Origin: an uncultured Pseudomonadales bacterium
GTDB lineage: Bacteria; Pseudomonadota; Gammaproteobacteria; Pseudomonadales; Azotimanducaceae
Length of the DNA stretch: 32,000 nt
Assembly: GCA_958296165.1 (NCBI GenBank)
Contig: OY282447.1
Coordinates: 3,601,154 to 3,633,153, forward strand
Reading direction: 5' to 3'
The translations under genes were made by a program, and so were the position numbers. The notes under the pieces are model-generated. The model saw only the letters and a list, made by a program, of their open reading frames with translations. It did no database searches and had not been told where the DNA came from. Shown piece by piece: positions 2 through 25,547 of this stretch. Within the stretch, counting starts at the first letter, position 1, and each line of letters opens with the position of its first letter.

Positions 2-988
2 ACTAAGACGTTCCTCGAATCGCTACAGCCCTACAACTCTACGGGCAAACTCAAGAACTTCCGGCAAGATGTGGCGGACGTAACGGCGCATCGCGTTGGC
101 TTCGATGCGCTGGCGACAATCCGTTCGGTGGCCGCCCTGTGCGCCGACCTTGGCCCGGTGGCGTCCTACCTTTCCACCGCCGAAGCGGGGCTGCCGGATG
201 GCGGCGAGTGGGCAGCGTGGACCGCGAAAGTACGAGCGGCTCGAGACGACATCCTCGCTCAGCTCGGCGATTCGCAGGCGCGGACGAAAGCCACATTTCG
301 GCAGCGCACTATGCGCCGTCTGGCCGAACTCAAAGCCGAGTATGTGCGCGACTATTTGGCGCGGCACACCAACGCGCGGCTGGGGGTGGACGGGGACAGG
401 CGCAAGGCAAAGCTCTTGGGCGATCAGCGCTTGACTGCTCTGAAGCGTCTGACGGCCATCGACTTGATGCCCCGGCAGCATCTTGAGAACAGTATGCGTC
501 GCATCGTTGACGTTGCGAGCTGTTTCGCGCTGACCGAGCAGGAAATGCGAGCAGCGCCACTATGCACCCACTGCGGCTTCAAGCCGGGCGCCACATCTGG
601 CGCGTCCGCGGACGCTGTATTGCATGCCTTCGACGACGAGTTGGACACCTTGACAGACACATGGACGCAAACGTTGCTGGCGAACTTGGAGGATTCAACC
701 GCCAAGGAAAGCGTGGAGTTGCTGGAACCGGAAGCCGCCAAGTTGGTGGCGGAGTTCACTCGTGCCGGCGAACTGCCGAATCAAGTACAAGACGATTTCG
801 TGCAGGCGTTGAAGGACGCCCTCTCTGGCTTGGAGAAGGTGCTGGTGACTGCCGATGCGCTCCGCGACGCGCTGCTCGCCGGCGGCACCGCCGCCACGCC
901 GGAAGAATTGAAGCTGCGGTTCGGGCGATTCGTAGACGATTTGGCGAAGGGTGCGCCACCTGGCCGGGCGCGGCTGGTGGTGGAGTGA
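2..988 (+). CDS. 3' part of a large protein in the BREX BrxC/PglY position (DUF6079-like); 5' end lies outside the window
   Basis: The frame is open from nt 2 ([20 protein letters not shown] precedes the GTG at 71 used by the ORF track). Contains a CTHCGFKPG Cys motif and a helical acidic tail; stop TGA 986-988. Sits directly upstream of the methyltransferase and PglZ genes. Family assignment is from memory of BREX-3 loci. Confidence 0.55.
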
Positions 989-992
989 CGGC

Positions 993-9204: not shown

Positions 9205-9325
9205 GTGAGGGGCGCGTGGGGATAGCAGAGATGGTTTCATCGATCTACGGTACTCGGACTAGCTGGTTTTAGAGAGCGTTTAGTTGACATGTTGATATCC
9301 CCCCGTGGGTGGTAGAGTCTTAGCG

Positions 9326-9643
9326 ATGCGTGCGGTAGAGGATGTGCAATTGAGCCGGTTTAAGAAGCCCTCGGTGGCGGTTCCAGACCGTGATGGTGAG
9401 AGCGACAACGAGGGCGTAGCAACAGCGTTGGCGAGGTCTGTGACAGACATTGATTCGGATTGGCGCGAGCGGATAGAACTCGCGAAACGCGCTTACGAAG
9501 ACGGCAAGGAGTTGCGCGAAGGCAAGCCAATCACCTTCCGAGTGGCCCGGCCCTTGATTCTCGGCGATGGATCGAACGCCTACGTCGGGAATGTCCCGCC
9601 TGCTGCGGCACTGCGAACGCCATGCCGGAAGTACCAGTCTTGA
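9326..9643 (+). CDS. Hypothetical small protein (uncertain)
   Basis: 105 aa from ATG 9326 (MRAVEDVQLSRFKK...RERIELAKRAYEDGKELREGKPITFRV). The composition looks protein-like, but there is no recognisable motif and it overlaps the tail of the opposite-strand fragment. Confidence 0.3.
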   Translation: MRAVEDVQLSRFKKPSVAVPDRDGESDNEGVATALARSVTDIDSDWRERIELAKRAYEDGKELREGKPITFRVARPLILGDGSNAYVGNVPPAAALRTPCRKYQS

Positions 9644-9687
9644 GCGTCCGCATAATGCTGTCGGCCTTGCAAGTCGTCGGCTGCCAT

Positions 9688-10014
9688 CTACTCGTCAAGG
9701 GCGCGATTGCACGCGATCGCCGCCGGGGCTGGGCAAGGATCGGGCCAAGGAAAGCGCTCCTCGTGCAGCAACGCCGCCCAGTTGGTCGCGAGCCAGTCCA
9801 AGAATGGCGCTAGATACCAGCCGACAAAGGGCTGTTGCTGTTCACCTAGCCTAGTCGCCGTGACGTTTACGCCTGCCACATGCATCGTCAACTGTCCCAT
9901 AGACCAGCCGTAGGCGGCTGGTCGCCGCTCGGGCGGCTCGCAATCATCAACCCAGCGAATGCCAATCTGCACGGTCGCAGGGTCACCGAAGCGCATCCAA
10001 TCGGGCATCGCCAC
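9688..10014 (-). CDS. Hypothetical protein, probably the decayed 5' part of a larger gene
   Basis: 108-aa ORF (MAMPDWMRFGDPATVQIGIRWVDD...GWYLAPFLDWLATNWAALLHEERFPWP). The reading continues plausibly past an in-frame TAG (9690-9688) as MAADDLQGRQHYADAQDWYFRHGVRSAAAGGTFPT, up to a second TAG at 9582-9580. Confidence 0.4.
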   Translation of the reverse strand: MAMPDWMRFGDPATVQIGIRWVDDCEPPERRPAAYGWSMGQLTMHVAGVNVTATRLGEQQQPFVGWYLAPFLDWLATNWAALLHEERFPWPDPCPAPAAIACNRALDE

Positions 10015-10330
10015 TTCCTATCGCCCACCAACGTCGTCCGTGTTTATCGCTCGTCGTGTCTTGCGCGGCGTCACGTAGCCTCCTCGAGCAAGAACATAGC
10101 GGACGGTCGCAACATATCGTCTAAGGCGTAGGATACCAGTGCGAGGTGCCTCCTTATTCGAGGCTCGGGGCTCCGCACCCGATCGCGTTGGCAAGTAAAT
10201 GTCCTCTAACCGTAGTGCTAGGTGCTCCGAGTGGGAAGAGTAAATGTCCGTTGGCTCGTACAGTAGGGCGTCTGCGCCCGGTCACGAGCGTTGGGCACCG
10301 TAGCACCAATGCTGCATTCAGGGCTCCTTG

Positions 10331-12307
10331 ATGCCTGCCGCTAGTTGGCAAGACGCCATCCTCAGCGAGTTCACGCCCGGCGTCTCGCCGCTCACCGTAG
10401 TGGCAGACCCGGATGGCCTGCTGCAAGATGACGAAATCCTTGCCACTCTACAGAAACGCGGGTTCTCCCTCCTCCGGTTCGAGGACCCCATCGCCTTCCG
10501 CTATGCCTACGAGTCGCGCTACCGCCGGCGTGAAGCACAGGCGGATGCGGAGGGCCTTGTCGTCTTGGTGCCGGCACCACCAGCCGAACTGGACAACCTG
10601 CCCCACGACATCCTCACCCGCAGCCGGCGCCTAGCGTTCAGCCTTGCCGAGCTGTTCCCCAGCCTGAACCAAGCCGTGGTGTCGGCGCTGGAACCGGCGG
10701 ATCGTGCCGCGCTCTACGAGGCGGCGTCCCTCCAGCAGCCAGCGGCCTTGGGGGAGAAGGCCAGCAAGGATTTCGTGCTGCATCACGTCTTCGGCGTCGT
10801 CCCGGACCTGTTGCGAACGCCGGCTGCGCTGCTGTCCGTGCTTCTTCGCCGGCACTATGCCGGTCGGCGCGTTCCACCGGCGTTGGATGCGCGGTTCATC
10901 GAAGCGATCAAGGAGCGTTTCCAACATTGGCCGCTTGGCCGCATCGTGCCGGATCGGGAAGCGTTCTTCGATTTTCTGCAGCAGCGTTGGCGGATGTTTC
11001 TGGATGCGAGAGCGGAAGGCACAGGGGCCGTTAGGGAGGGCACCGATGCCCTCGCTAGCGTGCTGCCTTTCGATCATAAGGATGTGCGCGTTTACATAGA
11101 CAACCTGTTCGCGGAAGGTCTTCTGCACCCCATCTCCCACTGGCAGGCGGCCACGCTGAGCAAAACGTGGCTTGGCGTCGGCGTTCAGTGGGATGCTCGG
11201 CAAGATGCCGCCGCCCGGCTGGATCGGCTGCTCGCCATCGCTGCGGAGTCGCTGCCGGAACAGGAAGCCCGGCATCAGGATTGGTTTCGATTCGCCAAAG
11301 TGTGGGCTAGGGTCGCAGCACTCACGCAAGAGCCCGACGGCAAGCCAAACGAGAAACAACAGCAAGCAGTAGACGGCTTGCGAACGCGCATGGACGCAGC
11401 GTTCAACCGCTGGGTGGCAAGCCGCTACGCGAGCCTCGCCAGCTTGCCGCCGAACCCGCCGGTGATGCTGCACCACGTCCCGCGCTTCCTCGCACGGGAG
11501 ATCGGCGACGACACAACGACGAAAGCCGCACTGGTGGTTGTGGACGGGCTGGCTCTGGATCAATGGGCTGTCATGCGGCAGCAACTCGCCCAACAGCGCC
11601 CCGGCTGGCGGTTTCGGGAAGACGCCGCGTTCGCTTGGGTGCCCACGATCACGTCCGTTTCCCGCCAAGCCATCTTCGCCGGCAGCCCGCCGTTCTACTT
11701 TCCGAACAGCATCCACGCCACGCACAAAGAGGACATGCTGTGGCGAAGGTTCTGGACGGATCAGGGAATACAAGGCGCCGTCTACGCGAGAAGCCTCGGC
11801 GATGGCCCTTTCGAGGACGTGGCCGCGCTCGTTGACCAGCCCAACGTTCGTGTGGCCGGCTTGGTGGTAGACAAGGTGGATCGCATCATGCACGGCATGA
11901 CGCTTGGCACAGCAGGCATGCACAATCAAGTGCGGCAATGGGCGTCGCAAGGGCATTTCGCGGCACTGCTAGACCTGCTGTTCGCGCATGGGTTCCGCGT
12001 CTACATCACGTCGGACCACGGCAACGTTGAGGCCGCAGGTTGTGGACGGCCAAACGAAGGTGCGGTGGCGGACGTGCGCGGCGAACGGGTGCGCGTGTAC
12101 TCCGAAGAAGGCTTGCGCCGCAGCGTTGCCGATCGCTTCGCCGGTGCGTGGTCGTGGCCGGCGGAAGGTTTGCCAGCAGGCCATCTGCCCCTGCTCGCGC
12201 CCGGCCGCAAGGCATTCGTGCGCGAAGGTGAAAGGGTGGTGGCGCATGGGGGCGTGTGCATTGAGGAACTCATCGTGCCGTTCGTGCAGGTGGTTGCGGG
12301 CATATGA
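10331..12307 (+). CDS. pglZ: PglZ-domain alkaline-phosphatase-superfamily protein (BREX)
   Basis: ALVVVDGLALDQW, VPTITSVSRQAIFAGSPP and ITSDHGNVEA are PglZ/alkaline-phosphatase core motifs. About 658 aa. ATG 10331 is preferred over the TTG at 10328. Confidence 0.85.
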   Translation: MPAASWQDAILSEFTPGVSPLTVVADPDGLLQDDEILATLQKRGFSLLRFEDPIAFRYAYESRYRRREAQADAEGLVVLVPAPPAELDNLPHDILTRSRRLAFSLAELFPSLNQAVVSALEPADRAALYEAASLQQPAALGEKASKDFVLHHVFGVVPDLLRTPAALLSVLLRRHYAGRRVPPALDARFIEAIKERFQHWPLGRIVPDREAFFDFLQQRWRMFLDARAEGTGAVREGTDALASVLPFDHKDVRVYIDNLFAEGLLHPISHWQAATLSKTWLGVGVQWDARQDAAARLDRLLAIAAESLPEQEARHQDWFRFAKVWARVAALTQEPDGKPNEKQQQAVDGLRTRMDAAFNRWVASRYASLASLPPNPPVMLHHVPRFLAREIGDDTTTKAALVVVDGLALDQWAVMRQQLAQQRPGWRFREDAAFAWVPTITSVSRQAIFAGSPPFYFPNSIHATHKEDMLWRRFWTDQGIQGAVYARSLGDGPFEDVAALVDQPNVRVAGLVVDKVDRIMHGMTLGTAGMHNQVRQWASQGHFAALLDLLFAHGFRVYITSDHGNVEAAGCGRPNEGAVADVRGERVRVYSEEGLRRSVADRFAGAWSWPAEGLPAGHLPLLAPGRKAFVREGERVVAHGGVCIEELIVPFVQVVAGI

Positions 12308-13053
12308 ACGAGAGAGCCAGCCAAGTCGGCGTCAGCCAGCGCCTCCGCTTGGAGTGGCTGGAAGCCACCGCCAACCTGATGCTGGCTGGCAATGACGTCG
12401 CCGTCATTCGAGACGCTCTGGACGACATGCTGGCAAGCAAGCTTTCCGTCGGGAGCGGCAGCGAGCGAGGCAGCCGGCAGAAGACGATCACCATCTTGAC
12501 GAAGATTTGGCGCAACGTGCCGCCGGACGTTAAACCGTTGCGCAACGATGCGTTGCAGATGCTGCCGGCGTTGAACCTGAACCATCGCCACGCCGTTCAT
12601 TGGGGCATGACGCTGGCCGTCTACCCGTTCTGGGGCATGGTGGCCGCTCACACTGGCGGATTGCTGCGCTTGCAGGGCACCGCTGCCGCAGCCCAGGTTC
12701 AGCGCCGCATCCGAGAACAATACGGCGAGCGGCAGACGGTCTCCCGAGCCGCAGCGCGCGTCTTGCGATCGTTCATCGACTGGGGCGTGTTGGCGGACGC
12801 GGACGGGAAGGGGCTCTATGTACGAGGGAGGCAACGTGAACTGGGAGATGCGAGAGTTGCTGCTTGGTTGGCGGAGGCCATGCTGCGCTCGGGGCCGCTA
12901 GTGCGCGGCTCAGCCAGCCCCCTACGCCACCCCACGTTGTTCCCGTATCGCCTGCCGCACTTGGCCGCCTCGCAGTTGGCCACGCACTCTTGCCGCCTTG
13001 ATGTGCTGCGCCAAGGGCTGGACGAAGAAGTGCTGATGTTGCGGCGCAAATAG
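12304..13053 (+). CDS. Small BREX accessory protein in the BrxA position (BrxA/BrxE-like, name uncertain)
   Basis: 249-aa ORF. Its ATG 12304 overlaps the pglZ stop (ATGA), so it is translationally coupled. The terminal position matches brxA of type 3 BREX. No motif I can verify by eye. Confidence 0.55.
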   Translation: MNERASQVGVSQRLRLEWLEATANLMLAGNDVAVIRDALDDMLASKLSVGSGSERGSRQKTITILTKIWRNVPPDVKPLRNDALQMLPALNLNHRHAVHWGMTLAVYPFWGMVAAHTGGLLRLQGTAAAAQVQRRIREQYGERQTVSRAAARVLRSFIDWGVLADADGKGLYVRGRQRELGDARVAAWLAEAMLRSGPLVRGSASPLRHPTLFPYRLPHLAASQLATHSCRLDVLRQGLDEEVLMLRRK

Positions 13054-13313
13054 CCCGTTGCCTGATCTGCGCGTTCACCGACGTGCATGAACGGGAAGGC
13101 GGAAGCTCGGTACTCGAACAGCGGTTTCCGCAGCCGCTACGGTTAGTCGTCCGCCGGCGGCAGATGAACGTGGAGCAATCACAGGCCGTGACTTACCACA
13201 AGGAGTACCGATGGTCCCACTGTCGTCTTGATGGGATGGTCCGCCCCGCTTCATTCGCGCGGGCCTCGGAGGCCAGAATAACGTGGGTTTCCCATCAACC
13301 AACGGAGCGAACC

Positions 13314-13531
13314 ATGAACGAGATTAAACGGATCGGCATGGATCTGGGCAAGCGGGTCTTCCACGTCACGGCGGCGGACGCGAAGGGCAGGATCGTCGAG
13401 CGCAAGCGGCTGCGGCGCGCGGGGCTGCAGTCCTATCTGGCGAAGCTGCCGGTGGGCTGCGAGGTGGCGATGGAGGCGTGCGGGAGCGCGCATCAACGGT
13501 GCCGCCTAGCGTCGCGGCTGGGCACGAAGTA
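13314..13531 (+). mobile_element. IS110-family transposase gene, N-terminal fragment only
   Basis: GGAG at 13304-13307, then MNEIKRIGMDLGKRVFHVTAADAKGRIVERKRLRRAGLQSYLAKLPVGCEVAMEACGSAH..RLASRLG. HEV follows after a 1-nt frameshift (ctgggcacgaagta would need one extra c). IS110-like sequence ends at 13531. Confidence 0.75.
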
Positions 13532-13693
13532 GGCGAGCTTGCCTGTCGGCGCTATCCCGGTGGGCATTTGATCGCGCACGATGACGAGCATCAGCAGGAG
13601 GCGCTGGAAGAGACCCGGCAGGTCATCGATGCGGGCACCGAAGTCGACGTCGCGGGCTACCGCGACAAAGTACACCCGCTGCAAGCGCCGTAG
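13532..13693 (+). pseudogene. Fragment resembling the N-terminal region of a DUF2779 (Cas4-like PD-(D/E)XK) protein
   Basis: GELACRRYPGGHLIAHDDEHQQEALEETRQVIDAGTEV resembles the remembered DUF2779 pattern VGELAxxxFPGGxxI...EEALxxTxxLL. It lacks its own start and decays after about 55 codons. Confidence 0.3.
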
Positions 13694-14296
13694 CCCGTGC
13701 CCGCCATCCCGCCATCGCCAAGCGAGTTCGGGTTGAACCCGGCTGCGCCGTGCAACTCGATGCGCTGCCGACGCTGCCCGAACTCGCCGCCTTGCGGCGC
13801 CGCAAACTGCGCGACCTGCTGACGCGGCGTGCCCGATGGCGCGGTCGAGCCGGGCATCGTCCCATTCCAACCCGGCGAAGCGGACGATCGCAACCGCCCG
13901 CCAGCGTCGCACTTCCTCATCCGGTCAATCCCCTCTTCCTGGTTGTTTGTCAGGGTCTGTTTTCGTGTCGCATGGGGGTCAGTTTTGCATGTCGCCTAAC
14001 AAAGCGGCGCCGAAACTCGCCGGTGATGCGTCCGTCGACGTCGTGCCTGACGCCGGTCATCCGCCGCATCTTCGGCGCCCGGCTCGTGACGGGACCGACA
14101 GCGACCGAACAGTTCGATTGGGTACTACCACGCAAAAAATCAGCCGGCGCGATCTGGCCGAGATAGACCTATGCCCAACACGATGACAGCTATCGGCGCG
14201 TGGAGGTCGCACACAGTGTGACGGTCGCCGGAGCGGCAACTATGATAGGTTAGTCATCAAGGTAGGGGATGCGGTCCACGAGGATCGTGAGCGAGC

Positions 14297-16600
14297 ATGC
14301 TGGACAGGCTTGTCCATTCGATTAGGCGCATCGTGTGTCGGCTGTGGCATACGGTGAAGCCCTCAGCTCCGGCACCTACCGCTTCCGTGTCCCTTACGCC
14401 GCGATCTGACATGCCGGCGACCACCGCGGCTACCGAAGTCACGACAGACAGTGACGAGGCGACCCCACCGGCCCGAACCCAACCAGATCAAGGAAACGCC
14501 CTGCGTGAAACGCATGAGCAACCCGACCATGTCCGGCCGGCTGCGATTTCGGGTGGGGGCGCGCTCCTATTGGCAGAAGACGCACTTGGGACGTCGGATT
14601 CGCATCCCGCCAGTCCCGTCCAAGCTCCCCCGGGCCATACTAGTCACGTCGATAGCTTATCACGGCCGACCCCCGCTGACCGGGCGAAGAATCTTGAACC
14701 TGTCCAGAACGACATCTCGGACGAGCGGTCTGAACGCTCGCACGGACAACCGAAGCGGCGACTCAAACCCGTTGAGATGGGAGGTCAGCGGGCAGAGAGA
14801 ACGGACGGCCAAGCACCAACTCGGCGAGAACCGCAGGCCGCCCGCGCGGAGCTAACTTGCCGCAAGAACGCCGAGCTCCACCAATGGGAGCTCGTTCTAT
14901 CTGTTGGTGGTGAAAGCAGCGTTAAGGACGTACAGCACGATGGGAGGACGTTGGACTTGGCGACCGGAGAACACGCCCTCTCATCTTTCTGCAGCAATGT
15001 CACGGTCGTTTTCGCCAGCGGCGAGCGGAAGGAGATTACGTTAGAGGACAAAGGCGAACCACTCGTTTTCAAGCTGAAGAATTGGAAAGGAGACGGTCGA
15101 AAAGTCAAAGGTATCGGTGTGGGGCACTATATCGTCATCGCACCAAGGGCTTACAAGCGCACCGGGCGTGTGCCTGTCGAACAAGAGGCTTGCACAGATC
15201 CAAACTTCACCGCCCACTACTTCCTCAGCGACGGAAAGTCGCCGCACGAAATCGGTGGCTTTCGAGAGCGTGACGTGCCATCGACGCAGTCCGTCATTGA
15301 ACTGACGGGCAAGATCGCGTTCGATGACTCAGAACACGGCGATCTGTTTGTCGGTGATGCTCCAAGCCTGATGCACTCGAACGGCATTGTCTGGGCGCGG
15401 GTTGGCGAGGAGGGCGGTTGGAGGGGCGAGAGCTTCAAGACGAACAAGCGCGATGTCGGCACGGTTCTGGGTAGCCGCCAAGGACGGTTTTTTGTCCGTG
15501 TATACGATGCTGACATGGAACTGCTGGACAGCGACCAGTTCAGATATCTGCGTGATCTCGAGGAGATTCTCGTGAATGGAAAGCCATACTCCGAAGACCT
15601 ATTGCTCGTTCCTACAACTGCTGGACATCTGCCGACCGAGGTGCGATTCATCGGTGTCGACGGTGCCAACGTTCATCCAGTATTGTCGCCTGAAGCCAAA
15701 CGAACGAACGTTAGAGGTACGAGTGTTCTGGCCGATCCCCATCCGGATGCCGATCGCATATCATGTAAAATAGAGGCCGACACGGGTAGCGTCGACGTTG
15801 TATTGGCTCTACCACGCGTTTGGTGGCACATTGCACAAGAAGACATGGATGCCTTCGAGTGGAGCGATGTGCCGACTGTCATGACGCGCCAGGAGTTCTG
15901 CAATCGCGGTTACGACGGCGTAGCCATGCGACTGCGAGCTCCACGCCGAATCAAGTCGGTACGCGTCGGCTTCGACGACCAACATGATCGCAGCTATCCC
16001 TTGAAACTCGGGGAGATAAACGGTCTGATTCCACTGCTCGACTTTGTCAACTACCCGCAGATCGATCAACGTCTGAGTGAGGATGCATCACTCGACATTG
16101 AGTGCGATGGAGTCACAGCGACCGTCATCCGCATTGCCGCCGACCCTATACCTGCTATCACTTCCTTCGTGTGCGAACCCGCAAAGACCGTCGCTGGGGA
16201 GCCAACCACATTGCGTTGGGAGGCCCGTAACGCCAGTGAGGCCAGAGTTGTCATCAACCGCAGTCCCCAAGTCGGTACTCTTGAATCGAACGGGAGCCTA
16301 GAAGTTCGACCGTTGAAGACCACGACCTACACGCTGGCACTCATCGTGCCCGGCGTCCCCGACGTGACGAAGGCCGTCACGGCGACGGTGTTGTCTTTGG
16401 TCGAGACCGAGAGCCGATACGCTCGCGTAAAGTGCCTCGGTGGATGGAGGCGCGGCAAAGGATTCAGCCGCCGCGAACTTGAGGCAGCTGGCTTGACGAC
16501 CGCCGATGCCAACCGTCGGTCGATCTTCATTGACGGACGGCGTAGAAGCATGCATCGGGAAAATGTCGAGACCATCGGGAGGAGGTCGGTCAATGGCTGA
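14297..16600 (+). CDS. Unknown 767-aa partner of the DUF1998 helicase (disordered N-terminus, beta-rich core, Ig-like module, eL13-like basic tail)
   Basis: Single long ORF whose stop overlaps the helicase start (ATGGCTGA). The first ~190 aa are Pro/Thr/Asp/Arg-rich, and an alternative start exists at ATG 14777. The Ig-like stretch is ITSFVCEPAKTVAGEPTTLRWEARNASEARVV..TTTYTLALI. The tail is GKGFSRRELEAAGL..IFIDGRRRSMHRENVETI. Confidence 0.7.
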   Translation: MLDRLVHSIRRIVCRLWHTVKPSAPAPTASVSLTPRSDMPATTAATEVTTDSDEATPPARTQPDQGNALRETHEQPDHVRPAAISGGGALLLAEDALGTSDSHPASPVQAPPGHTSHVDSLSRPTPADRAKNLEPVQNDISDERSERSHGQPKRRLKPVEMGGQRAERTDGQAPTRREPQAARAELTCRKNAELHQWELVLSVGGESSVKDVQHDGRTLDLATGEHALSSFCSNVTVVFASGERKEITLEDKGEPLVFKLKNWKGDGRKVKGIGVGHYIVIAPRAYKRTGRVPVEQEACTDPNFTAHYFLSDGKSPHEIGGFRERDVPSTQSVIELTGKIAFDDSEHGDLFVGDAPSLMHSNGIVWARVGEEGGWRGESFKTNKRDVGTVLGSRQGRFFVRVYDADMELLDSDQFRYLRDLEEILVNGKPYSEDLLLVPTTAGHLPTEVRFIGVDGANVHPVLSPEAKRTNVRGTSVLADPHPDADRISCKIEADTGSVDVVLALPRVWWHIAQEDMDAFEWSDVPTVMTRQEFCNRGYDGVAMRLRAPRRIKSVRVGFDDQHDRSYPLKLGEINGLIPLLDFVNYPQIDQRLSEDASLDIECDGVTATVIRIAADPIPAITSFVCEPAKTVAGEPTTLRWEARNASEARVVINRSPQVGTLESNGSLEVRPLKTTTYTLALIVPGVPDVTKAVTATVLSLVETESRYARVKCLGGWRRGKGFSRRELEAAGLTTADANRRSIFIDGRRRSMHRENVETIGRRSVNG
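16577..16585 (+). promoter_or_regulatory. Shine-Dalgarno sequence for the helicase gene
   Basis: GGGAGGAGG lies 7 nt upstream of ATG 16593, inside the 3' end of the upstream ORF. Confidence 0.6.
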
Positions 16601-19600
16601 CACGGAAGACATATGGCGTTGGCCGGAAATGGTTCGTCAACGCTACGAGAACTATCTGAGAACTTCGTTCTTCTTTAGGGACCCGCAGCTAAGGGCGTCT
16701 TTTCAGACGGCACTACAAGAAGACGGTAGCCTTCTCAAGGGGCCGTTTACTGAAGTGTCCGGAGGCTTCGAGACTGGCACAGATACGCGGGCGTTGGCCG
16801 AAGAATGCTTTCCATGCAAGAGCGCGAGTCTTGTTCCGGCGCTGATTAGTGGCCCGCTATATGTGCATCAAGAACGAGCCGTGCGCTCGACATATATCGA
16901 CGAACAGAACATTGTCGTCGCGACCGGCACTGCTAGCGGTAAGACGGAGAGTTTCCTCTATCCAATCCTGTACGAGTTGTATCGCGAGCACCTCGCAGGA
17001 GAACTCGATGAACCGGGTGTGCGGGCAATGATCTTGTACCCGATGAACGCGCTGGCGAACGATCAGAGGGAGCGCCTAGGCGAGATATGCGGCGAGTTGC
17101 GCGCCGCTGGATCGGGATTCAAGCCGACGTTCGGCCAATATATCGGACAGACGCCCTATAACGCTAAGGACAGCTGGCGTAACGCCGCAGCACGAGAGGA
17201 AGAACGCTTAGCCGGAGAACTCGTCTTCCGGGACGAGATGCGAAATGCACCTCCTCACATCTTGATGACGAATTATTCGATGCTGGAGTACCTCCTCATC
17301 CGCCCAGACGACAGCCCTCTGTTCGACGGTAGTCGAGGTGCCCGGTGGAAGTTCATCGTGCTTGACGAGGCGCACCAGTATCGCGGTGCCAAAGGCATGG
17401 AAATGGGCATGCTGATTAGGCGGCTAAAGCAGCGGCTCCGAGACGGCGGCCGGCGCGAACCGTTCCGCTGCATCGCGACCAGCGCAACCCTCTCCTCCGG
17501 CGAAAGCGAGAAGGACAAGCAAGTCGTAGCCGAGTTTGCGAACGAGCTCTTCGGAGAGTCATTTTCGGCATCGGGCGTCATTTTCGGCAAGCCACAGCGG
17601 ACAGTGGCCGATGGACGTCCGCGCCGCTACCATGCCTTCCTGCGTGCCTTGGAGGGGGCGTTTCTCGTCCACAGAGGAGGCGTAGATGCCGTCGTGCTCA
17701 ACCGTCGAGGCGGAAGCGACGAAGGGTCCGGAGACCCGTTGGAGGTCGCACTCTGCCGCGAATGCGGCCAGCACTACTACGTTGGCCGAGAGCGGGGCGG
17801 AAAGCTAAAGGAGGCCGTTCGAGATCCCAGCCAGCCTGACTTCGGCGTGACCTATTACCTACCTACGGAGGAGGGCGGCGAGCAGCTATGCAGGTGCTGC
17901 GGCGCGCTGTCGAAGTCTAAACCCGGCTGCGACTGCGGAGCGACGGTTCGCGTGAAGAAATGCCAGTCCCGAGATGGTCAACCCGATCAGTTGAAGCAAT
18001 GCGAAGCGTGTGGCTATCAACGTGGCGGCATCGGCGACCCGGTGCAGGAGATAGTGCATGGTTCGGACGGACCCAATAGCGTCATTGCGACGGCGCTGCA
18101 CGAACTGTTGCCGGAAGGCAGGCGCAAAGTGCTGGCGTTTGCCGACAGCCGTCAAGAGGCCGCGTTCTTCGCATGGTATGCCGAGGACTCGTACGAGAAG
18201 CTGCGTGACCGAAATCTCATGCTGCGCGCCATCAGATCTGAAGAGGTCGATCCTGAAGGCCTGTCCGTAGATGACCTCAGAAACCGGCTGCGTAAGCAGT
18301 GGCAGGAGGCCGGCCTGTTTAGCGGCGCTGACACCGGTGAACAGCAGAACCGAAAGGTGATGACGTCGATCCTTCGAGAGGCGCTGACTGAAGAAAAGAG
18401 ACTCTCCTTGAGCGGTGTGGGCTTGATCAAGTGGTCCGTGCGGATCCCAGCACATTTGAGCTTGCCGGAGACGATGCGACAGCCGCCATGGAACTTCACG
18501 GATGGTGAGGCGCGCCGCCTTGCTGAATATCTCCTCGACGAGTTGCGGCCCCGCCGGGCAATGAGCCTTCCTAGCGACGCAGGAACACCCAGTTGGGACG
18601 ACATAGCCGCACGGCCTCAGCAGGCGTGCAGTGTCGGCGCGCCAAAGGGCGTTCGGAAGGTCTTCCAGTGGGGAGCCCCCCAATCGGCGGTCGTGAAGCA
18701 TTTTCTACGCCGATTGCTCGCGGACACGGATCTGCCGGATAAACAGAAGCAGGAGATGTCGACGAAACTCATGAAGGATGTTTGGCGCATGTTGACTAGT
18801 GCCGAAGAGCCGATCCTCAAGCGTGTAACTGCGAGCACATTTCGACTCGATCCGCGCTGGCTGCGGATTGAACTTGCCGCACACGACGAGATCTGGGAGT
18901 GCGACACCTGCGCGACTTTGAGCAACCACAACATCCGTGGCGTCTGCCCTCGGTATCGGTGCCCAGGAACCTTGTCAGCCGCGGGTCAGGCGCATCTCAA
19001 TACGAACCACTATCGAATCCTCTACGAGAGCGCTAAGCTGCCGCCTGAGCTGCGTGCGGAAGAACACACGGCACAGATCGAAAGCGACGAAGCACGCCAA
19101 AGACAGGACAGGTTCAAGACAGGACGCGTCCACCTTCTGAGCTCCTCCACTACGTTCGAGGTCGGCGTCGATCTCGGTAATCTGGAAGCTGTGTTTCTCC
19201 GCAACGTACCACCCGAGCCGTTCAACTACGCGCAGCGAGTTGGGCGAGCGGGTCGACGAGGGACTCCGGGGTTGGCGCTGACCTATTGTCGCCGCAACCC
19301 GCATGATCTCTATCATTACGAGGATCCGGTCGACCGCGTGATTGGAGGCGCGGTGCATCCTCCGCGCCTGCGGATGACTAACGATAAGATCATTCTACGG
19401 CACATGGTTGCCACCACTTTGGCGATGTTCTTCCGGGAGAATGGCGAACGCTTTAACAACGTGGAGAACTTCGTCGGAGACTGGTCAACTCCCCACGCGG
19501 CAGACGACGTCAGGACGTTCTGCCAAGGCAATAGATCGTTGGCGGACTCGTTTCGCCAGACCGTTCCCGAGAATATGCATCGCCGGGTGGGCCTCGGGAA

Positions 19601-20822
19601 TGACGCTTGGATTGACAACGTAGCGGGGCCGCAAAGCCGTTTCGGGCAAGTAGAAGCGGAGGTGTGCGCCGACTATCGGCATATGAAGACGCTGAGGGAA
19701 CAGCTCTTCGAACAAGGCGAGGACGGTCGTATGAGCCGCATTGGGAGTCGCATGAGAACGATCGCCAAGGAACGAACCTTGAACTTCCTCTCCCGCAAGG
19801 CCGTCATCCCAAAGTATGGATTTCCCGTAGATGTTGTCGAACTCGACACGCGGCCGGCAGACGGCAATCCGACTGGCGTCGTACTCCAGCGAGACCTATC
19901 TCAGGCCATCGCCGAGTACGCCCCCGGAGGCAAAGTGGTGGCCAATAAGCTGGAATGGGAGTCCTACGGCGTGAAGGCCGTGACCGGCAAGGCGTGGCCA
20001 GTGCGCTTTTACCAATATAGTGACGCACGCGACTTCGAGCAATGGGACGATGGTGATCCGTCCATCCCGCCCAACGGGCGAAAGTACCTCATTCCAGAGT
20101 TCGGTTTCGTAACGCCGCTGTTCGAAAGAGCCAAAGAGCCTCACGGGCGAGTTCGGCGGCTCTATACAACGCGGCCTTTTTTCCGCGGCTTCGAACCGGG
20201 TGCCCATCCAGAAACGGAAATCGTCCATGGCGTCCAAGTGACGAAGGCGGTACCGGGAACTCTGGTCATCCTTTGCGAAGGCAAGAACAGGAAGGGGTTC
20301 TATATCTGCACTTCCTGCGGCGCGCACATGACGGGCGCGAAGGGAAAGCACCGGTCGCCGTGGGGTTCCGATTGCGGAGGCACGCTTAGGAACTTCTCGC
20401 TTGGTCATGAATTGGTCACAGATATCGTTCGCCTGCAGTTTCCGCGACTCGGCGGCGAGTGGGACGCCTACTCCGTCGCCTACGCCCTTCTACTCGGTGC
20501 GGCGACAGCACTGGACGTGCCGGATACTGATCTGAACGTGACGATTGCTCGCGGGGACCATTCGAAAGAGTCCGCAATCGTGCTGTACGACGACGTTCCC
20601 GGCGGCGCAGGGCTGGTGGTGCAACTGGAACGGGAGAGCGTCTTCGACGAGGTGCTGAGCAACGCTAGAGAGCGGGTCCAAGGCAATTGCGGCTGCGACT
20701 CAAGCTGCTACGGCTGCCTACGCAGCTACCGTAACCAGTTTGCGCACCCGTATCTTGACCGAAAGGCGGCGCTGGCGACCTTGAGCTTCGACGACACGAC
20801 ACCGCGCACAAGGATGGCCTAG
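16593..20822 (+). CDS. DEAH-box SF2 helicase with multiple Cys clusters and a C-terminal DUF1998 domain (DruE-like, or a DrmA-DrmB-fusion-like protein)
   Basis: Helicase motifs ATGTASGKTESF, FIVLDEAHQYRG, ATSATL and QRVGRAGRRG. Cys clusters CRECG..CRCCG..CDCG, CEACG, CDTC..CPRYRC and CTSCG..DCGG. DUF1998 signature VPGGAGLV...GCDSSCYGCLRSYRNQFAHPYLDR. The start is taken at ATG 16593 (strong SD) rather than 16506 of the ORF track. Confidence 0.88.
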   Translation: MADTEDIWRWPEMVRQRYENYLRTSFFFRDPQLRASFQTALQEDGSLLKGPFTEVSGGFETGTDTRALAEECFPCKSASLVPALISGPLYVHQERAVRSTYIDEQNIVVATGTASGKTESFLYPILYELYREHLAGELDEPGVRAMILYPMNALANDQRERLGEICGELRAAGSGFKPTFGQYIGQTPYNAKDSWRNAAAREEERLAGELVFRDEMRNAPPHILMTNYSMLEYLLIRPDDSPLFDGSRGARWKFIVLDEAHQYRGAKGMEMGMLIRRLKQRLRDGGRREPFRCIATSATLSSGESEKDKQVVAEFANELFGESFSASGVIFGKPQRTVADGRPRRYHAFLRALEGAFLVHRGGVDAVVLNRRGGSDEGSGDPLEVALCRECGQHYYVGRERGGKLKEAVRDPSQPDFGVTYYLPTEEGGEQLCRCCGALSKSKPGCDCGATVRVKKCQSRDGQPDQLKQCEACGYQRGGIGDPVQEIVHGSDGPNSVIATALHELLPEGRRKVLAFADSRQEAAFFAWYAEDSYEKLRDRNLMLRAIRSEEVDPEGLSVDDLRNRLRKQWQEAGLFSGADTGEQQNRKVMTSILREALTEEKRLSLSGVGLIKWSVRIPAHLSLPETMRQPPWNFTDGEARRLAEYLLDELRPRRAMSLPSDAGTPSWDDIAARPQQACSVGAPKGVRKVFQWGAPQSAVVKHFLRRLLADTDLPDKQKQEMSTKLMKDVWRMLTSAEEPILKRVTASTFRLDPRWLRIELAAHDEIWECDTCATLSNHNIRGVCPRYRCPGTLSAAGQAHLNTNHYRILYESAKLPPELRAEEHTAQIESDEARQRQDRFKTGRVHLLSSSTTFEVGVDLGNLEAVFLRNVPPEPFNYAQRVGRAGRRGTPGLALTYCRRNPHDLYHYEDPVDRVIGGAVHPPRLRMTNDKIILRHMVATTLAMFFRENGERFNNVENFVGDWSTPHAADDVRTFCQGNRSLADSFRQTVPENMHRRVGLGNDAWIDNVAGPQSRFGQVEAEVCADYRHMKTLREQLFEQGEDGRMSRIGSRMRTIAKERTLNFLSRKAVIPKYGFPVDVVELDTRPADGNPTGVVLQRDLSQAIAEYAPGGKVVANKLEWESYGVKAVTGKAWPVRFYQYSDARDFEQWDDGDPSIPPNGRKYLIPEFGFVTPLFERAKEPHGRVRRLYTTRPFFRGFEPGAHPETEIVHGVQVTKAVPGTLVILCEGKNRKGFYICTSCGAHMTGAKGKHRSPWGSDCGGTLRNFSLGHELVTDIVRLQFPRLGGEWDAYSVAYALLLGAATALDVPDTDLNVTIARGDHSKESAIVLYDDVPGGAGLVVQLERESVFDEVLSNARERVQGNCGCDSSCYGCLRSYRNQFAHPYLDRKAALATLSFDDTTPRTRMA

Positions 20823-21352
20823 GCACCGCCATCCTCCGCTGTACAACCGGTGCAGGATCGGGTCGGCGCGTGTTGGCGCAAACGCGGCGTCAATTGGTGA
20901 GCCGCTATCCCACCACACCGAGCTCGAGAGCCAGTGTTGAAGGTGCAAAGGCGAGGCACCGGCCCCGCCGGCGTAGCAAATGCGCTCCCCGAAGAGACGC
21001 TACGACCACGAACGCCCTACGGCCGACTCGACAGCCATGAGATTCAAGCGCTCACGGATGACATCGAGCACGAACTGCGCCGGCGCGTCCTCGCTGACAC
21101 CCGCGACAGAGCCATGCTCCGCAACGCCGTAGCGTAGCGCGCGCATCGGCTCAGTCCGCGTCGCTGGCGCAGGTGCGACTCACGAGCCGCCGCCGACCGG
21201 TCGAAAGGCCAGCGGGCGATCCGCCCTCGGACTGCTACTGCATGGACCGCCGCCGCGGCTTAGCGGACTTCGCGGCCGAAGAACCGCCGTTTGCGCTTCG
21301 GTCGGGCCTTCCGTGCCAGTGCGTCGCGCTCCTCACGCTCTTGACGCTTGCG

Positions 21353-21469
21353 CTTCACGCCCACGAAGCGCATCGTCGGCCGGCACACCTCCGCGATGCC
21401 GTCCGCGTCGTTGGCGTCGTTCTTGTTCGACTTGACGTACGGCGACACGAACTGCGGACTCGTCAGCAG
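21353..21469 (-). mobile_element. IS110-family transposase gene, internal fragment in inverted orientation
   Basis: LLTSPQFVSPYVKSNKNDANDADGIAEVCRPTMRFVGVK is the IS110 segment that normally follows ...GHEV directly. Similarity is lost after VGVK. Confidence 0.7.
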
Positions 21470-21731
21470 CGCCCTGCTGCACATAGTCTCTGACTTGCTG
21501 AACAGCCCAGCCATCCGTGGATGTTTTTGGATCATGGAACTTCGCTTGAACATAGATAGTCAGTCTGGCTCTGTCGAACGAGGCGCGGATGTCGACGTCG
21601 CCGTCGTCCCTGTTCTTTTGTGGAGTGCAGACGTCGCTTGCGCCAATTCGCCGGAAGTACCACTTCAACAGCGACTCGAACTTTCCCGGACTTAACTCGT
21701 TGTAAATGAGGCACAAGAGCTGTTCTGCCAA
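21470..21731 (-). pseudogene. Mrr_cat-type (PD-(D/E)XK) restriction endonuclease N-terminal fragment, truncated at the IS110 piece
   Basis: MAEQLLCLIYNELSPGKFESLLKWYFRRIGASDVCTPQKNRDDGDVDIRA...LTIYVQAKFHDPKTSTDGWAVQQVRDY fits the Mrr catalytic pattern (FE..L...G, DxGxD, QxK). The ORF then runs into IS-derived sequence. Confidence 0.55.
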
Positions 21732-22210
21732 TTCGGGGGTACGCGAGCGTAGCGCTATCGGTCCAGGGCGATTGCATTTTGGGAATTCTTAGTGAATTAC
21801 GTGGCCAAGTAGGCCCCTGCCGGGTCTGATTTTTCGCCTCCAAACGCCCCGAATGGGCCTGACAGACAGTTTGAGAGGTCGTTTGCCGCTGTTCGACGGT
21901 CCGTTTAGGCCACGAGACGACATTTTATGTCCAAATGCAATCGCCCTGACGGAACAGTCTCGCGGCGTCGGAGCCGGTCTGCGACTGGTGCCTGATGACC
22001 AGCAACGCCGGCGTGCGCGCCGACGCAACGCGGGACTTGCTCACATGAGCGCCGTGGTCATCGCCAGCGTCAGCGGCATCTCGGGCGGCTGCGCCACCCT
22101 GACCCTGGCCCGGGCCGCGACCTCCCGATCCCGCTGGCCAACCGCCTTCTCGCGGACCTCGGCCTTCTTCATGATCCGGGCGGCGCGACGTTCGATGAGC
22201 GACGCCTCCT

Positions 22211-22967: not shown

Positions 22968-25547
22968 CTAGAAGACATCTCCAATCAGCTTGCCGATCGC
23001 TTGGGCGTCAAGGCCCCCTCTGCGGTCGTCTGATGTCTTGATCAGCATGCGTTCAGCGTCTTTGCCTTCGCTCCAAGGCACTATTCCATCCTCCAGATAT
23101 TCCTCGCGTTTGCGCTCCCACCGTGCGTGATAGGCCGGATCATCCAACAACCCCAAGTGTTCCCAATAGTAGGTTGTCCCGCTTGCGTCGTCCTCGACCG
23201 TGAAGTCAGGGTAGCGAGTACGTCCTCCAGAGAGTACGAGGGGTTGCTCATATGCGTAGTCAACGCCGGCCGCATGCAGTTTGTCGGCGATGACGAGCTC
23301 GGACTTGGAACGCACAAGATCGCCTCTCTCGGTGCGATGGATGAGATCCTCCTCAAGGAACCTACTGGTGCCTACGTTGCGCACTTCCGTCGGAGCGGGC
23401 GGAGCGAACAGATTGGTCATACGGCGTGCGATCTCGGAGTACTCGTCGCCGACGTATCTCCGATAGTCTTCTATTGGTCCCTGATGAAGGACGACAAGCC
23501 TGTCCTGATGCCGTGTGAGTGCGGTGTAGAGCAACTCGCGAGAGAGCAGCGCGCACGGGTTCGTCAGCACTACAAAGGTCGTTTTGAATTCACTGCCTTG
23601 CGTCTTGTGTACTGTCAGGCAATAGGCGAGTTCGAGTGTGGGCTGTTGATCCTCGCCGAACTCATGCTCCAAAAAGCTGTACCTGCGGCCAAGTTGTCCC
23701 GCGAACTCAACCTCGGTCTTCCAAGGCGGCTTCCTGTATGGTGCTTTCTTTCCCTTGTATTGCCCGACGACAATCCCAATGTCGCCGTTGGCAATGTAGG
23801 ACTCGCCGTCACTTGGGTACACGTCCTTCTTTTTTCTTCTCTGATTACGAACATTGATTATCTTGTCGCCGTAGAGAATGCCTTGGGTACCCAAAGGCTT
23901 CGGAACTTTTCTATATCTTGCTTCTGTGAGCTTCCTCGCCTCCTTGCGAAACCGGGCCTGTATGGCTCGATTCAGCGCGTCCACACCGGTCATGCCGGCC
24001 CTACGCGGCGTTAGTACTTGCCAGCTCTCGACCTTGCTCGCGGCACCAGGGGAATGCTTGGACTCAGGATGGAAGAACGCGTGCGGCGCGTTACGATACC
24101 GAGAGCCGCCTATCGACTCCTCGAAGCCGAGCTCGTCTTCAGGGCTAGACAAGCCCAAGCTATGTACAAGCTCGTCCATGAGCCGTTGCTCTAGCTCTGC
24201 GCTGTGGTCCCACCGCACTAGGCGCAGCCTCTCGTCGGAGCGACCGAGGCTGCTGAGGGCGGAATCCGCCTCTGGGTCGAGCGGCTGGCCATTGAAGTGC
24301 GAAGCGAGCAAAACGTCAGGCCGTGCCGTACCCTGTTGTCGTCTCGGTACAGTTAGTTCGGCGTAACCGATCGAACAGCGAGGGAACTGACTCTCTACGC
24401 CATCAGGCCGGAGCTTCCGAACGATGTCTACGAAGGGGCGCCCGGCGCCGATTGGCGGAAGCTGGCGTGGATCGCCGACGAGCACGAGACGTTCTACGCC
24501 GGCGAGCGCGTCGAGCAAGGCAGCCAGTTGCTCTTCCGTAAGCATGGAACACTCGTCCACGACGACTGTGCGATAGTCTCGGCAAGGGGCTGCCTGTGGG
24601 TTAGGGAAATACCGCCCAGTTGTGCTGTCGTAGCGGTTCAGGCCGATGAGGAACTGCGCCAGAGTTTTGCCGTGGCCGCGTAGGCCAGTCCGTTCCTCTA
24701 GGCGTACGCGAGCTTTGCCGGTGGGTGCTAGCAGCAAGATTCCCTCGTCGGCAACCCCGCTGATCTCGCAGAGCATACGAATCAGTGTCGTCTTGCCGGT
24801 GCCGGCAGGGCCGATGAGGACAGAGAGGCGCGAAGAGAACACAACCTCCAATGCGGCGGCCTTCTCTTTCCTGCCTCGTCTCTCTGTATCTCGTTCAGCA
24901 TCATCTGCTGGTAGCGGGCCTAGGGTGTTCTCTATCAGCGCAGGCCATTCGTGCTCGGCCGCATGTTTGCGTCCGCGCACTCGCTTGTTCACCTCTTTGC
25001 CGATGATTGATCTGCAATTCGTTAGCCGATCGACTTGGTAGGCCGTTTCGCCTGCGGCCGTTGTCGTACATCGGACGACGGTATCGAAAGTGGCCTGCAT
25101 AGCGTCGAGTACGTTGTCGCCCAACGGACAAGGCGGTTGAAGCACGCGCTCTCTGGCACGCCGTATGACCCAACTCTTCGGTAGCAGTGTATGGCCCTCT
25201 AGGGCGGCATCCTCAAGAAGGTCTACAACTAGGGATCGCACTCTACGGCCGTCCGTAGGATCATCGACGCGAGACGGTTCGGTCATGGGAAACTGTTGAC
25301 GTAGAGCGTCGTCGGGGAAAACTCCTCGATCCACGGTGGCGAAGGCGATGGGATTTTCGGCAGTGCGGTCCTGTTCAAACAGGAGGAAGGGGTTTTTCAG
25401 AAGCTCGCGGTCCGCCGCTTCTACCCCAGCATCCTCACGCTTCTGCGGGTCGTAGAAGCGAAGTGCCTGATCTTCGCTCAGTGCACATCGGCTCAGGAGA
25501 TTGAGAAGTGCTCGACGATTCGGGCGAGATGCTGCCAGCCATTGCAC
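22968..25547 (-). CDS. RecD/TraA-like SF1 helicase (AAA_30 and UvrD_C_2 type) with a C-terminal PD-(D/E)XK-like nuclease domain
   Basis: Helicase motifs LIGPAGTGKTTL, VVVDECSML, LVLVGDPRQLPPIGAG and CLTVHKTQGSEF. The C-terminus VRSKSELVIADKLHAAGVDYAYEQPL...RYPDFTVED..YYWEHLG looks nuclease-like. It has a GTG start with no SD and overlaps the upstream ORF by 55 nt. Confidence 0.8.
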   Translation of the reverse strand: MQWLAASRPNRRALLNLLSRCALSEDQALRFYDPQKREDAGVEAADRELLKNPFLLFEQDRTAENPIAFATVDRGVFPDDALRQQFPMTEPSRVDDPTDGRRVRSLVVDLLEDAALEGHTLLPKSWVIRRARERVLQPPCPLGDNVLDAMQATFDTVVRCTTTAAGETAYQVDRLTNCRSIIGKEVNKRVRGRKHAAEHEWPALIENTLGPLPADDAERDTERRGRKEKAAALEVVFSSRLSVLIGPAGTGKTTLIRMLCEISGVADEGILLLAPTGKARVRLEERTGLRGHGKTLAQFLIGLNRYDSTTGRYFPNPQAAPCRDYRTVVVDECSMLTEEQLAALLDALAGVERLVLVGDPRQLPPIGAGRPFVDIVRKLRPDGVESQFPRCSIGYAELTVPRRQQGTARPDVLLASHFNGQPLDPEADSALSSLGRSDERLRLVRWDHSAELEQRLMDELVHSLGLSSPEDELGFEESIGGSRYRNAPHAFFHPESKHSPGAASKVESWQVLTPRRAGMTGVDALNRAIQARFRKEARKLTEARYRKVPKPLGTQGILYGDKIINVRNQRRKKKDVYPSDGESYIANGDIGIVVGQYKGKKAPYRKPPWKTEVEFAGQLGRRYSFLEHEFGEDQQPTLELAYCLTVHKTQGSEFKTTFVVLTNPCALLSRELLYTALTRHQDRLVVLHQGPIEDYRRYVGDEYSEIARRMTNLFAPPAPTEVRNVGTSRFLEEDLIHRTERGDLVRSKSELVIADKLHAAGVDYAYEQPLVLSGGRTRYPDFTVEDDASGTTYYWEHLGLLDDPAYHARWERKREEYLEDGIVPWSEGKDAERMLIKTSDDRRGGLDAQAIGKLIGDVF

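Follow-up and report, generated by a model that had tools for sequence, protein, structure and literature searches.

Druantia type III systems pair the helicase DruE with a partner protein, DruH, and all four mechanistic studies of these systems from 2026 use a YjiT-type DruH and disagree on its activity. According to the Druantia studies, DruE dimers load on exposed single-stranded DNA (ssDNA) or 3'-tailed junctions and unwind them in the 3'->5' direction, the phospholipase D (PLD) domains of DruE were dispensable in one study, and the partner proteins have been proposed to set how the DruE core is activated. Canonical DruH features six immunoglobulin (Ig)-like domains between two helical domains and has been reported to be an ssDNA binder inhibited by ATP, with its site between Ig5 and the C-terminal domain (CTD), a 3'-5' exonuclease, with its site in the N-domain, or a sensor of late phage proteins. 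Compact, nuclease-less DruEs with one partner were named "Druantia III-B" in 2025-2026 preprints (Bell et al. 2025; representative DruE GIH50614.1), and a compact DruH-DruE pair of M. smegmatis (MSMEG_1253/1254; DruE of 1667 aa, no nuclease) protects against phage, blocking phage DNA circularization and replication. Here, we describe a two-gene locus in a stretch of 32,000 nucleotides, referred to as the window, from an uncultured Pseudomonadales bacterium of the Azotimanducaceae (contig OY282447.1, positions 3,601,154 to 3,633,153). According to our analysis, the segment from 14096 to 20849 of the window is probably an autonomous, horizontally mobile two-gene defense module of the Druantia III type, in a compact form devoid of a nuclease. 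An earlier note on this DNA had proposed a divergent Druantia-III-like or novel DUF1998-helicase pair, which is supported here, since the helicase is a DruE and the partner is not a recognizable DruH. The unit is made up as follows.

14096..14296, + strand: upstream leader that travels with both genes; the 98.4% nucleotide identity with contig L087 starts exactly at 14096
14297..16600, + strand: partner gene, 767 aa, from a large undescribed family, not DruH/YjiT
16577..16600, + strand: coupling junction, with the ribosome-binding site (RBS) GGGAGGAGG at 16577-16585, the DruE start ATG at 16593 and the partner stop TGA at 16598-16600
16593..20822, + strand: compact DruE helicase, 1409 aa, with a YprA-like superfamily 2 (SF2) core, Zn modules and MZB/DUF1998, without a nuclease domain
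20823..20849, + strand: short 3' tail of the transferred unit; the identity with L087 stops at 20849

On the evidence of profile matches and domain content, the helicase is firmly assigned as a DruE in compact, nuclease-less form. Among the PADLOC models, those of DruE1 (E 8.7e-160), DruE3 (E 5e-145), DruE2 (3e-123) and DruE4 (1e-115) matched it best, while the DpdJ, SngC, BrxH and DrmA models reached E 1e-23 or weaker; a sequence search of the PDB likewise returned DruE (9tu7, E 1e-77) well ahead of YprA/MrfA (E 8e-20). Pfam recognized DEAD, Helicase_C and MZB/DUF1998, distributed along the protein as follows.

16866..17495, + strand: RecA1/DEAD domain, aa 92-301, with the P-loop GTASGKT (K117) and DEAH at 258-261
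19041..19262, + strand: RecA2/Helicase_C domain, aa 817-890, with motif VI at 881
20478..20720, + strand: MZB (MrfA Zn-binding, DUF1998) domain, aa 1296-1376, Pfam PF09369 E 6e-13, with the signature GCDSSCYGCLRSYRNQFAHPYLDR at aa 1367

All catalytic motifs are intact and seven CxxC motifs are present, which bears out the SF2 motifs, the at least four CxxC clusters and the DUF1998 signature read in the earlier note. The protein stops just after the MZB domain, with a C-terminus of 33 aa past it, so that the helicase carries no PLD or other nuclease. When aligned with a genuine E. coli III-A DruE of 2104 aa, the two proteins correspond from the N-terminus to RecA1 and from RecA2 to MZB, and the alignment stops at E. 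coli residue 1713, so that no counterpart of the ~390-aa PLD region of E. coli is seen in the window helicase. Pfam, PADLOC and this alignment recognized no nuclease domain in either helicase or partner, and a cassette lacking both a PLD nuclease and a methylase, as described before, is what we found.

The helicase open reading frame (ORF), which ends at 20822 on the + strand, offers two possible starts, at 16506 (1438 aa) and at 16593 (1409 aa). The latter is preceded at a distance of 7 nt by the RBS GGGAGGAGG (16577-16585), its ATG and the partner stop codon TGA overlap as ATGGCTGA, and it is backed by a contig of 98% identity, in which the gene was called with 1409 aa; the start site and the tight coupling of the pair suggested earlier therefore hold. 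The coupling is a property of the family as well: in related loci, where ORFs were delimited stop-to-stop, the partner stop is overlapped by a start codon in 61 of 78 cases, and 37 of these 61 have the 8-nt form ATGNNTGA.

Conservation of the two genes as neighbors is complete in the loci that allow a judgment. Four of four partner homologues looked up lie directly upstream of a DEAD/Helicase_C/MZB gene of 1405-1416 aa, in unrelated contexts. A scan of the GTDB species genomes with the window DruE yielded 80 loci at 50-77% identity, all of them in metagenome-assembled genomes, and in 78 of the 80 an ORF of the partner family runs in the same direction and ends where DruE begins, which corresponds to 78 of 78 informative ones; of the other two loci, one lies on a truncated contig (L040) and one is a frameshifted copy invaded by insertion sequences (ISs) (L058). 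The earlier note had held that a pair which did not stay adjacent would speak against its proposal; adjacency was found throughout. The hosts span more than 12 phyla in all and include Acidobacteriota, Latescibacterota, Binatia, Alpha- and Gammaproteobacteria, Gemmatimonadota, Chloroflexota, Spirochaetia, Dadabacteria, Nitrospinales, Thermodesulfobacteriota, Actinomycetota and others. That many are sponge or coral symbionts is suggested by names like Poriferihabitaceae, Spongiisociaceae, SAR202 and "Plut_", the habitat being read from names alone.

The limits of the unit are given by contig L087, from another organism, which is 98.4% identical to the window at the nucleotide level exactly over 14096-20849 and not outside it, and in which the pair is flanked by Nramp and a giant protein, not by BREX. 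By this comparison, the pair has moved recently as a 6.76-kb unit holding just these two genes. Neither terminal repeats nor a tRNA nor an Rfam element was found at the borders of the unit. Within the leader, a sigma70-like site (14218-14246, GTGACG-17-TATGAT) is suggestive by its position alone, such sites being no commoner than in shuffled sequence; more generally, scans for promoters and terminators gave no more sites than shuffled sequence did. Decayed copies were also observed, namely, L088 12300-17855, in which druE is interrupted by an ISAzo13-type transposase, and L058 5908-9989, which has a frameshift in druE, IS elements upstream and no partner any more. Gain and loss of this kind are typical of accessory defense genes.

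The partner protein was described in the earlier note as having a biased N-terminus, a beta-rich core, an Ig-like module and a basic eL13-like tail, and composition, an AlphaFold2 model (mean pLDDT, the model's per-residue confidence, 78.7; core >90) and Pfam, NCBIfam and PDB profile matches agree with each of these features.

14300..14347, + strand: N-terminal amphipathic helix, aa 2-17 (MLDRLVHSIRRIVCRLW), semi-conserved; helix prediction, pLDDT ~80
14354..14815, + strand: disordered biased linker, aa 20-173; pLDDT <50
14843..16396, + strand: all-beta core, aa 183-700, of about six Ig-like/beta-sandwich domains; pLDDT >90, DSSP strands
16412..16597, + strand: eL13-like C-terminal module, aa 706-767, a beta-hairpin and three short helices, 24% K+R

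N-termini similar to that of the window partner occur in the distant homologues P0004, P0012 and P0107. The linker (residues 20-173) is rich in P, A, T, S, D and R and differs in length and sequence between homologues (median of 193 aa before the core), and it ends in a conserved basic motif, with the family consensus PRxIGGRR, which recurs in distant homologues. A search for partner homologues gave 125 matches at 31-96% identity, and an exhaustive profile search gave 1,503 clusters (50% identity level) at E <= 1e-30, a count that includes a few unrelated Ig-repeat giants as false positives; the best 150 clusters all lie below E 1e-183. Judging from these searches, the partner is a member of a large, unnamed and unannotated family. 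Its invariant residues G338, G370, E372, G396, R401 and R416 fall in the most conserved stretch of the core (aa 338-416, window 15308-15544), the conservation of which exceeds the need of a pure scaffold, so that it may be a binding or catalytic site. The six invariant residues cluster with the near-invariant acidic residues D343 and D411 in the second and third beta domains, and the motifs of this stretch include FDDSE, VWARVGEE and GRQGRFFVRVYD. As to unusual members of the family, P0121 (1173 aa) contains the partner core twice in tandem. P0122 (4314 aa) is a giant in which the last Ig-like module (profile positions 635-715) is present 47 times, so that this module occurs outside the partner family as well.

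The C-terminal tail of the partner matches Pfam Ribosomal_L13e with 24.9 bits, exactly the gathering score, over residues 716-760 (Pfam positions 62-103 of 180), and the NCBIfam model of archaeal L13e with E 4e-13, at 48.7 bits, which is under the cut-off of 96. Searched against the PDB, the partner-family profile retrieved archaeal eL13 (E 8e-9), with the motif GKGFS..EL..AGL...A..RSI.ID.RRRS aligned. In light of these profile matches, we regard the tail as a genuine relative of the eL13 core at the domain level, not as a ribosomal protein.

The earlier note could not assign the partner to any described defense protein, and neither could we: the window partner gave no PADLOC match at E <= 0.1, and 64 diverse family members compared with 5,027 PADLOC models gave zero matches, whereas a real DruH used as a positive control (E. 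coli plasmid NZ_CP092976.1, annotated as "STY4851/ECs_5259 family" and located beside Zorya II) matched 10 PADLOC DruH3 models. The Pfam domains YjiT_N and YjiT_2nd are present on every DruH homologue and in 0 of 120 partner relatives. Profile-profile alignment by hhalign of the partner family (121 sequences) with a DruH alignment (33 sequences, reaching down to 17% identity) returned a probability of 1% and E 0.06. The partner as a DruH was thus ruled out by PADLOC, Pfam and hhalign, the latter both against a single DruH sequence and profile versus profile. A partner scoring as a bona fide DruH, which the earlier note had named as the outcome that would make the locus an ordinary Druantia III, is therefore not what we observed. 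The helicases differ accordingly in length, since the DruEs found with true DruH homologues, the most divergent included, are long (~2060-2095 aa) and carry YjiV_N, while the compact DruEs adjoining the partner family comprise just DEAD, Helicase_C and MZB, without YjiV_N.

These results bear on a first alternative, namely, that the locus is an ordinary Druantia III in which the partner is an extremely diverged and trimmed DruH that inherited the Ig array, lost the two alpha-helical end domains and works as DruH does. We consider this unlikely. The gene position and the coupling are the same, canonical DruH too has six Ig-like domains, and the modeled beta-array of DruH measures ~570 aa versus ~520 aa in the partner; moreover, the models of both proteins retrieve overlapping generic tandem-Ig structures in Foldseek (5oj6_B, 8opr_A, 4oia_A, 6grs_B and 8dgg_A). 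Such common matches are generic, however, with TM-scores of 0.1-0.2, and the divergence would have to be such that none of 64 members is matched by the DruH models of PADLOC, 10 of which match a real DruH, that no YjiT_N or YjiT_2nd is left in 120 relatives and that profile alignment with DruH stays at a probability of 1%. In addition, the helical domains with the reported exonuclease site and the ssDNA/ATP pocket are absent. Foldseek searches of PDB and BFVD with the partner model returned tandem-Ig chains at a probability of 1.0, with TM-scores of just 0.1-0.2, among them neurofascin, contactin, titin, ICAM-5 and phage virion Ig proteins; they gave no specific relative of the partner, nor any baseplate J-like signal such as has been reported with DruH. 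We read this generic result as indicating the architectural class of the modeled partner, not a specific relative.

While the core and DruE are constant, the variable part of the family is the ends of the partner. The eL13-like tail is the prevailing one, being present in 261 of 326 family sequences (~80%) and in 62 of 78 loci, and the alternative C-terminal modules follow the Ig core in frame, ahead of the DruE start.

L051: complete ribosomal protein S2 (uS2) module; Pfam Ribosomal_S2, 216/216 positions, E 2e-93, 312 bits
L059, L063, L065, L066, L080, P0110 and P0113: S5 (uS5) N and C domains; Pfam E ~1e-28
L036: S17 (uS17) module; Pfam, 68/68 positions, E 1e-28
L025: RNA polymerase (RNAP) omega/Rpb6 module; Pfam E 3e-9, above the gathering score
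One member: HhH domain; Pfam E 3e-4
One member: beta-propeller; Pfam E 2e-9
Several members: four small tail types, without Pfam assignment

The S2, S17 and omega fusions are represented by one locus each. The S5 tails share just 28-54% identity between lineages and are therefore old, retained fusions and not assembly accidents. At the other end of the protein, five loci (L052, L061, L077, L078 and L084) carry an N-terminal sigma-70 in which regions 2, 3 and 4 each exceed the gathering score, the order being sigma-70, linker, core and eL13-like tail. In these sigma70-fused partners, a fragment of region 1.2 follows region 4 (e.g., L077 aa 551-577), so that the sigma part is either permuted or followed by the start of a second sigma. 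The identities bS6, uL29 and HARE-HTH, considered by eye for some of the alternative tails, were dropped since Pfam did not support them.

The picture that we favor, a Druantia-III-type defense module, suggests a mode of action in which DruE, by homology with characterized DruE, would engage ssDNA or ss-ds junctions that are exposed while phage DNA replicates, and unwind the DNA 3'->5' with ATP. The partner, in the position of DruH, would be a subtype-specific sensor or adaptor deciding when and where DruE acts, and its terminal module would be the recognition element, which here, being eL13-like, would most simply bind nucleic acid. We assign these roles because the partner is coupled to DruE, because its core is constant and its ends are variable, and in light of the DruH/DruE literature; the partner keeps the Ig array alone, and a small variable module sits where DruH has its CTD. 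Protection may then come about because the helicase disrupts the replication or maturation of phage DNA, possibly together with host nucleases, given that neither protein has a recognizable nuclease. We are much less confident of the sensing step specifically than of the assignment of the locus as a defense module.

Several points weigh against the assignment. The domain searches detected neither a nuclease nor any other effector domain in the two proteins that would account for the killing step. There is no detectable sequence relationship between partner and DruH, so that a DruH role would be transferred by position and architecture only; the published DruH mechanisms themselves conflict (binding of ssDNA that ATP inhibits, 3'-5' exonuclease activity, or sensing of proteins), and the reported DruH sites map to helical domains that are absent from the partner. 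Finally, known defense genes are a minority of the flanking ORFs in related loci.

A different account of the end modules takes them as near-native copies of host transcription and translation parts, which would bait the phage factors that bind or modify such parts during host takeover, or would attach partner and DruE to RNA polymerase or ribosomes, so that infection would be sensed at the gene-expression machinery and not on DNA. It is a doubtful reading, although a good deal of the module evidence can be told its way: the modules are entire proteins that score as genuine ones typically do (S2, S5, S17, omega, and sigma-70 regions 2, 3 and 4), the C-terminal ones are in frame between core and DruE start with the S5 fusions old and retained, uS2 and omega are not simple nucleic-acid-binding folds, and canonical DruH has been proposed to recognize phage proteins. 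Yet the commonest module, that of the window included, is eL13-like, and to our knowledge, bacteria have no eL13 to mimic or replace. Furthermore, most modules bind nucleic acid, which fits generic binding too, S2, S17 and omega each occur in a single locus, and several other tails have no assignable fold. In its most extended form, which we deem improbable, the partner would be a modular infection sensor with integrated copies of sigma70, RNAP omega, uS2, uS5, uS17 and an archaeal-type eL13 core, serving as baits or docks for the nuclease-less DruE, akin to the "integrated decoy" of plant nucleotide-binding leucine-rich repeat (NLR) receptors, and spread horizontally through sponge and coral microbiomes. 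Our literature searches turned up no report that connects L13e or fusions with ribosomal proteins to anti-phage proteins, and nothing relevant on integrated decoys with ribosomal proteins or on sponge symbionts with Druantia.

The pair lies in a defense island. Upstream of it, the window encodes BrxC, a Schlafen/AlbA_2 ATPase, PglX(I), SIR2, HerA, PglZ and BrxA, and downstream, PDC-S68. The BREX locus (71-13050) has a type-3-like order, with the BrxC C-terminus, PglX (best PADLOC model, PglXI), PglZ and BrxA. Between BrxC and PglX, and overlapping both, a 681-aa protein with Schlafen/AlbA_2, HATPase_c_4 and Fic-like_C domains is encoded (951-2993), the best PADLOC matches of which are pAgo-associated models. 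Between PglX and PglZ, the usual place of BrxHII, lies a nested SIR2-HerA pair (5757-8845), and the 1.5 kb after it (8848-10328) contains no ORF longer than 117 aa. PDC-S68 (22971-26761, - strand; model length, 1221) is split over two overlapping ORFs, 25496-26761 covering model positions 5-389 and 22971-25547 covering positions 387-1218, which suggests a frameshift or a pseudogene. A 142-nt stretch (21813-21950) is 85% identical to an unrelated locus (L088 1109-1248) and is bracketed by a perfect 16-nt inverted repeat (21764-21779/21933-21948), so that 21764-21950 may be a small repeat or an element resembling a miniature inverted-repeat transposable element (MITE). As to the immediate flanks, which the earlier note had described as degraded or noncoding DNA on both sides, no ORF with a Pfam match was found in 13053-14296 or in 20823-21852; this bears the description out in part, with degradation as a possibility, and ~200 nt of the upstream flank (14096-14296) belong to the transferred unit.

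In single loci elsewhere, the pair adjoins TIR and McrBC, AbiEii, or toxin-antitoxin genes and methylases, and the 104 flanking ORFs collected from 55 loci include type I and II restriction-modification, PARIS AriA, Mokosh MkoA, Hhe, DpdF, DrmB and PDC candidates. No neighbor recurs, the commonest flanking family accounting for at most 2 of these 104 ORFs. The module is thus autonomous, and it is associated with defense islands often, not always. It is very unlikely that the pair has no part in defense, being instead a housekeeping or repair helicase like MrfA/YprA with an accessory protein, or an Ig-rich "eukaryote-like" symbiont surface protein beside a helicase, because against the helicase-MZB core shared with MrfA/YprA (E 8e-20), the Ig-like arrays typical of adhesins in hosts that mostly look like sponge or coral symbionts and the many metabolic genes in the flanks stand DruE models scoring at least 10^100-fold better than repair-helicase models, a patchy distribution across phyla at 50-77% identity with a recently moved 6.76-kb unit and IS-decayed copies, the defense island of the window, a strict translational coupling that argues against mere adjacency and a charged partner N-terminus in which no signal-peptide-like hydrophobic stretch was found.

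The locus is of interest for the Druantia mechanism since it pairs the same helicase core as the YjiT-type systems under study with an unrelated, smaller partner lacking both helical domains, and since its DruE has no nuclease. If the pair protects against phage, it would define minimal requirements of the mechanism and would mean that the "DruH slot" can be filled by nonhomologous proteins. The exchangeable ribosomal, RNAP omega and sigma70 modules, of which our searches gave no mention in anti-phage proteins, offer a testable hypothesis on what is sensed, and partner ends built from copies of ribosomal proteins and RNAP subunits hint at a new mode of infection sensing. The partner family is large and absent from PADLOC v2, and therefore probably missed by current defense annotation, and the distribution of the pair points to an intense exchange of a defense module across phyla in apparent sponge and coral symbiont communities.

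When the pair is set beside known systems, the feature common to Druantia of any type, a YprA-like helicase of the DruE type with an SF2 core, Zn modules and MZB/DUF1998, is present, and so is the two-gene layout of type III, with one partner directly upstream of druE and nothing else conserved. Next to druE, no DruA-D or DruM/F/G of Druantia I/II was seen, the neighbors being PglZ and BrxA of BREX upstream and ORFs without matches downstream. The DruH of type III, a YjiT-family protein of ~1100 aa with YjiT_N and YjiT_2nd, has no equivalent of that kind here. With the III-A systems (E. coli and P. aeruginosa DruH-DruE, with a YjiT-family DruH and a YjiV-type DruE with tandem PLD), the window shares the operon order, a DruE whose homology extends from the N-terminus over RecA1, the Zn modules and RecA2 to MZB, and the presence of an Ig-like array in the partner. 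However, the III-A DruE is ~2000-2100 aa long and carries a C-terminal tandem PLD and YjiV_N, whereas that of the window has 1409 aa and neither of them, and the III-A DruH has ~1120 aa, whereas the window partner has 767 aa and lacks the YjiT domains, the helical N- and C-domains and any detectable sequence homology.

The MrfA/YprA-MrfB repair pair and DISARM DrmA/DrmB have the SF2 helicase and MZB/DUF1998 core in common with the window helicase but match it weakly (E 1e-15 to 1e-20), and the unit contains no MrfB exonuclease, DrmC or methylase. In DISARM, where the DrmA match has E 1e-15, DrmA and DrmB are separate, while helicase and DUF1998 are fused in the window; besides, the region with the BrxA-like and Zn-module insert aligns with DruE and not with MrfA/YprA or DISARM. 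The eL13 of archaea and eukaryotes is a free ribosomal protein, whereas the window version forms the C-terminal end of a bacterial protein of 767 aa, the last ~60 aa of which carry the core motif G(K/R)GFS..EL..AG(L/I)...A...I.(I/V)D.RRR, with archaeal eL13 as the best match.

A further compact DruE, of 1559 aa and unannotated, is encoded by the C. butyricum pair pNPD4_2 (WP_071981758 and WP_071981757; plasmid NZ_CP013238.1, L005 3759-11644). It is the best relative of the window DruE on a plasmid (~30% identity over 85% of the query), and an overlapping gene of unknown function lies upstream of it. The 1069-aa protein encoded by this gene matches neither the window partner family nor DruH, and for this reason it represents a third type of partner for a nuclease-less DruE; being unrecognizable as a DruH, it was unsuitable as a sensitivity control for hhalign. 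Of the same layout are the III-B systems, with a compact DruE, mostly without a nuclease domain, and one partner. The M. smegmatis partner, at 1132 aa, is DruH-sized, versus 767 aa here, and the published accounts of III-B and of M. smegmatis that we consulted describe no eL13-like, other ribosomal or RNAP-subunit modules. On the strength of these sequence comparisons, we classify the pair as a "III-B-like" variant of Druantia type III, of which the layout is already known and the partner family, with its exchangeable end modules, is new as far as the literature searched shows.

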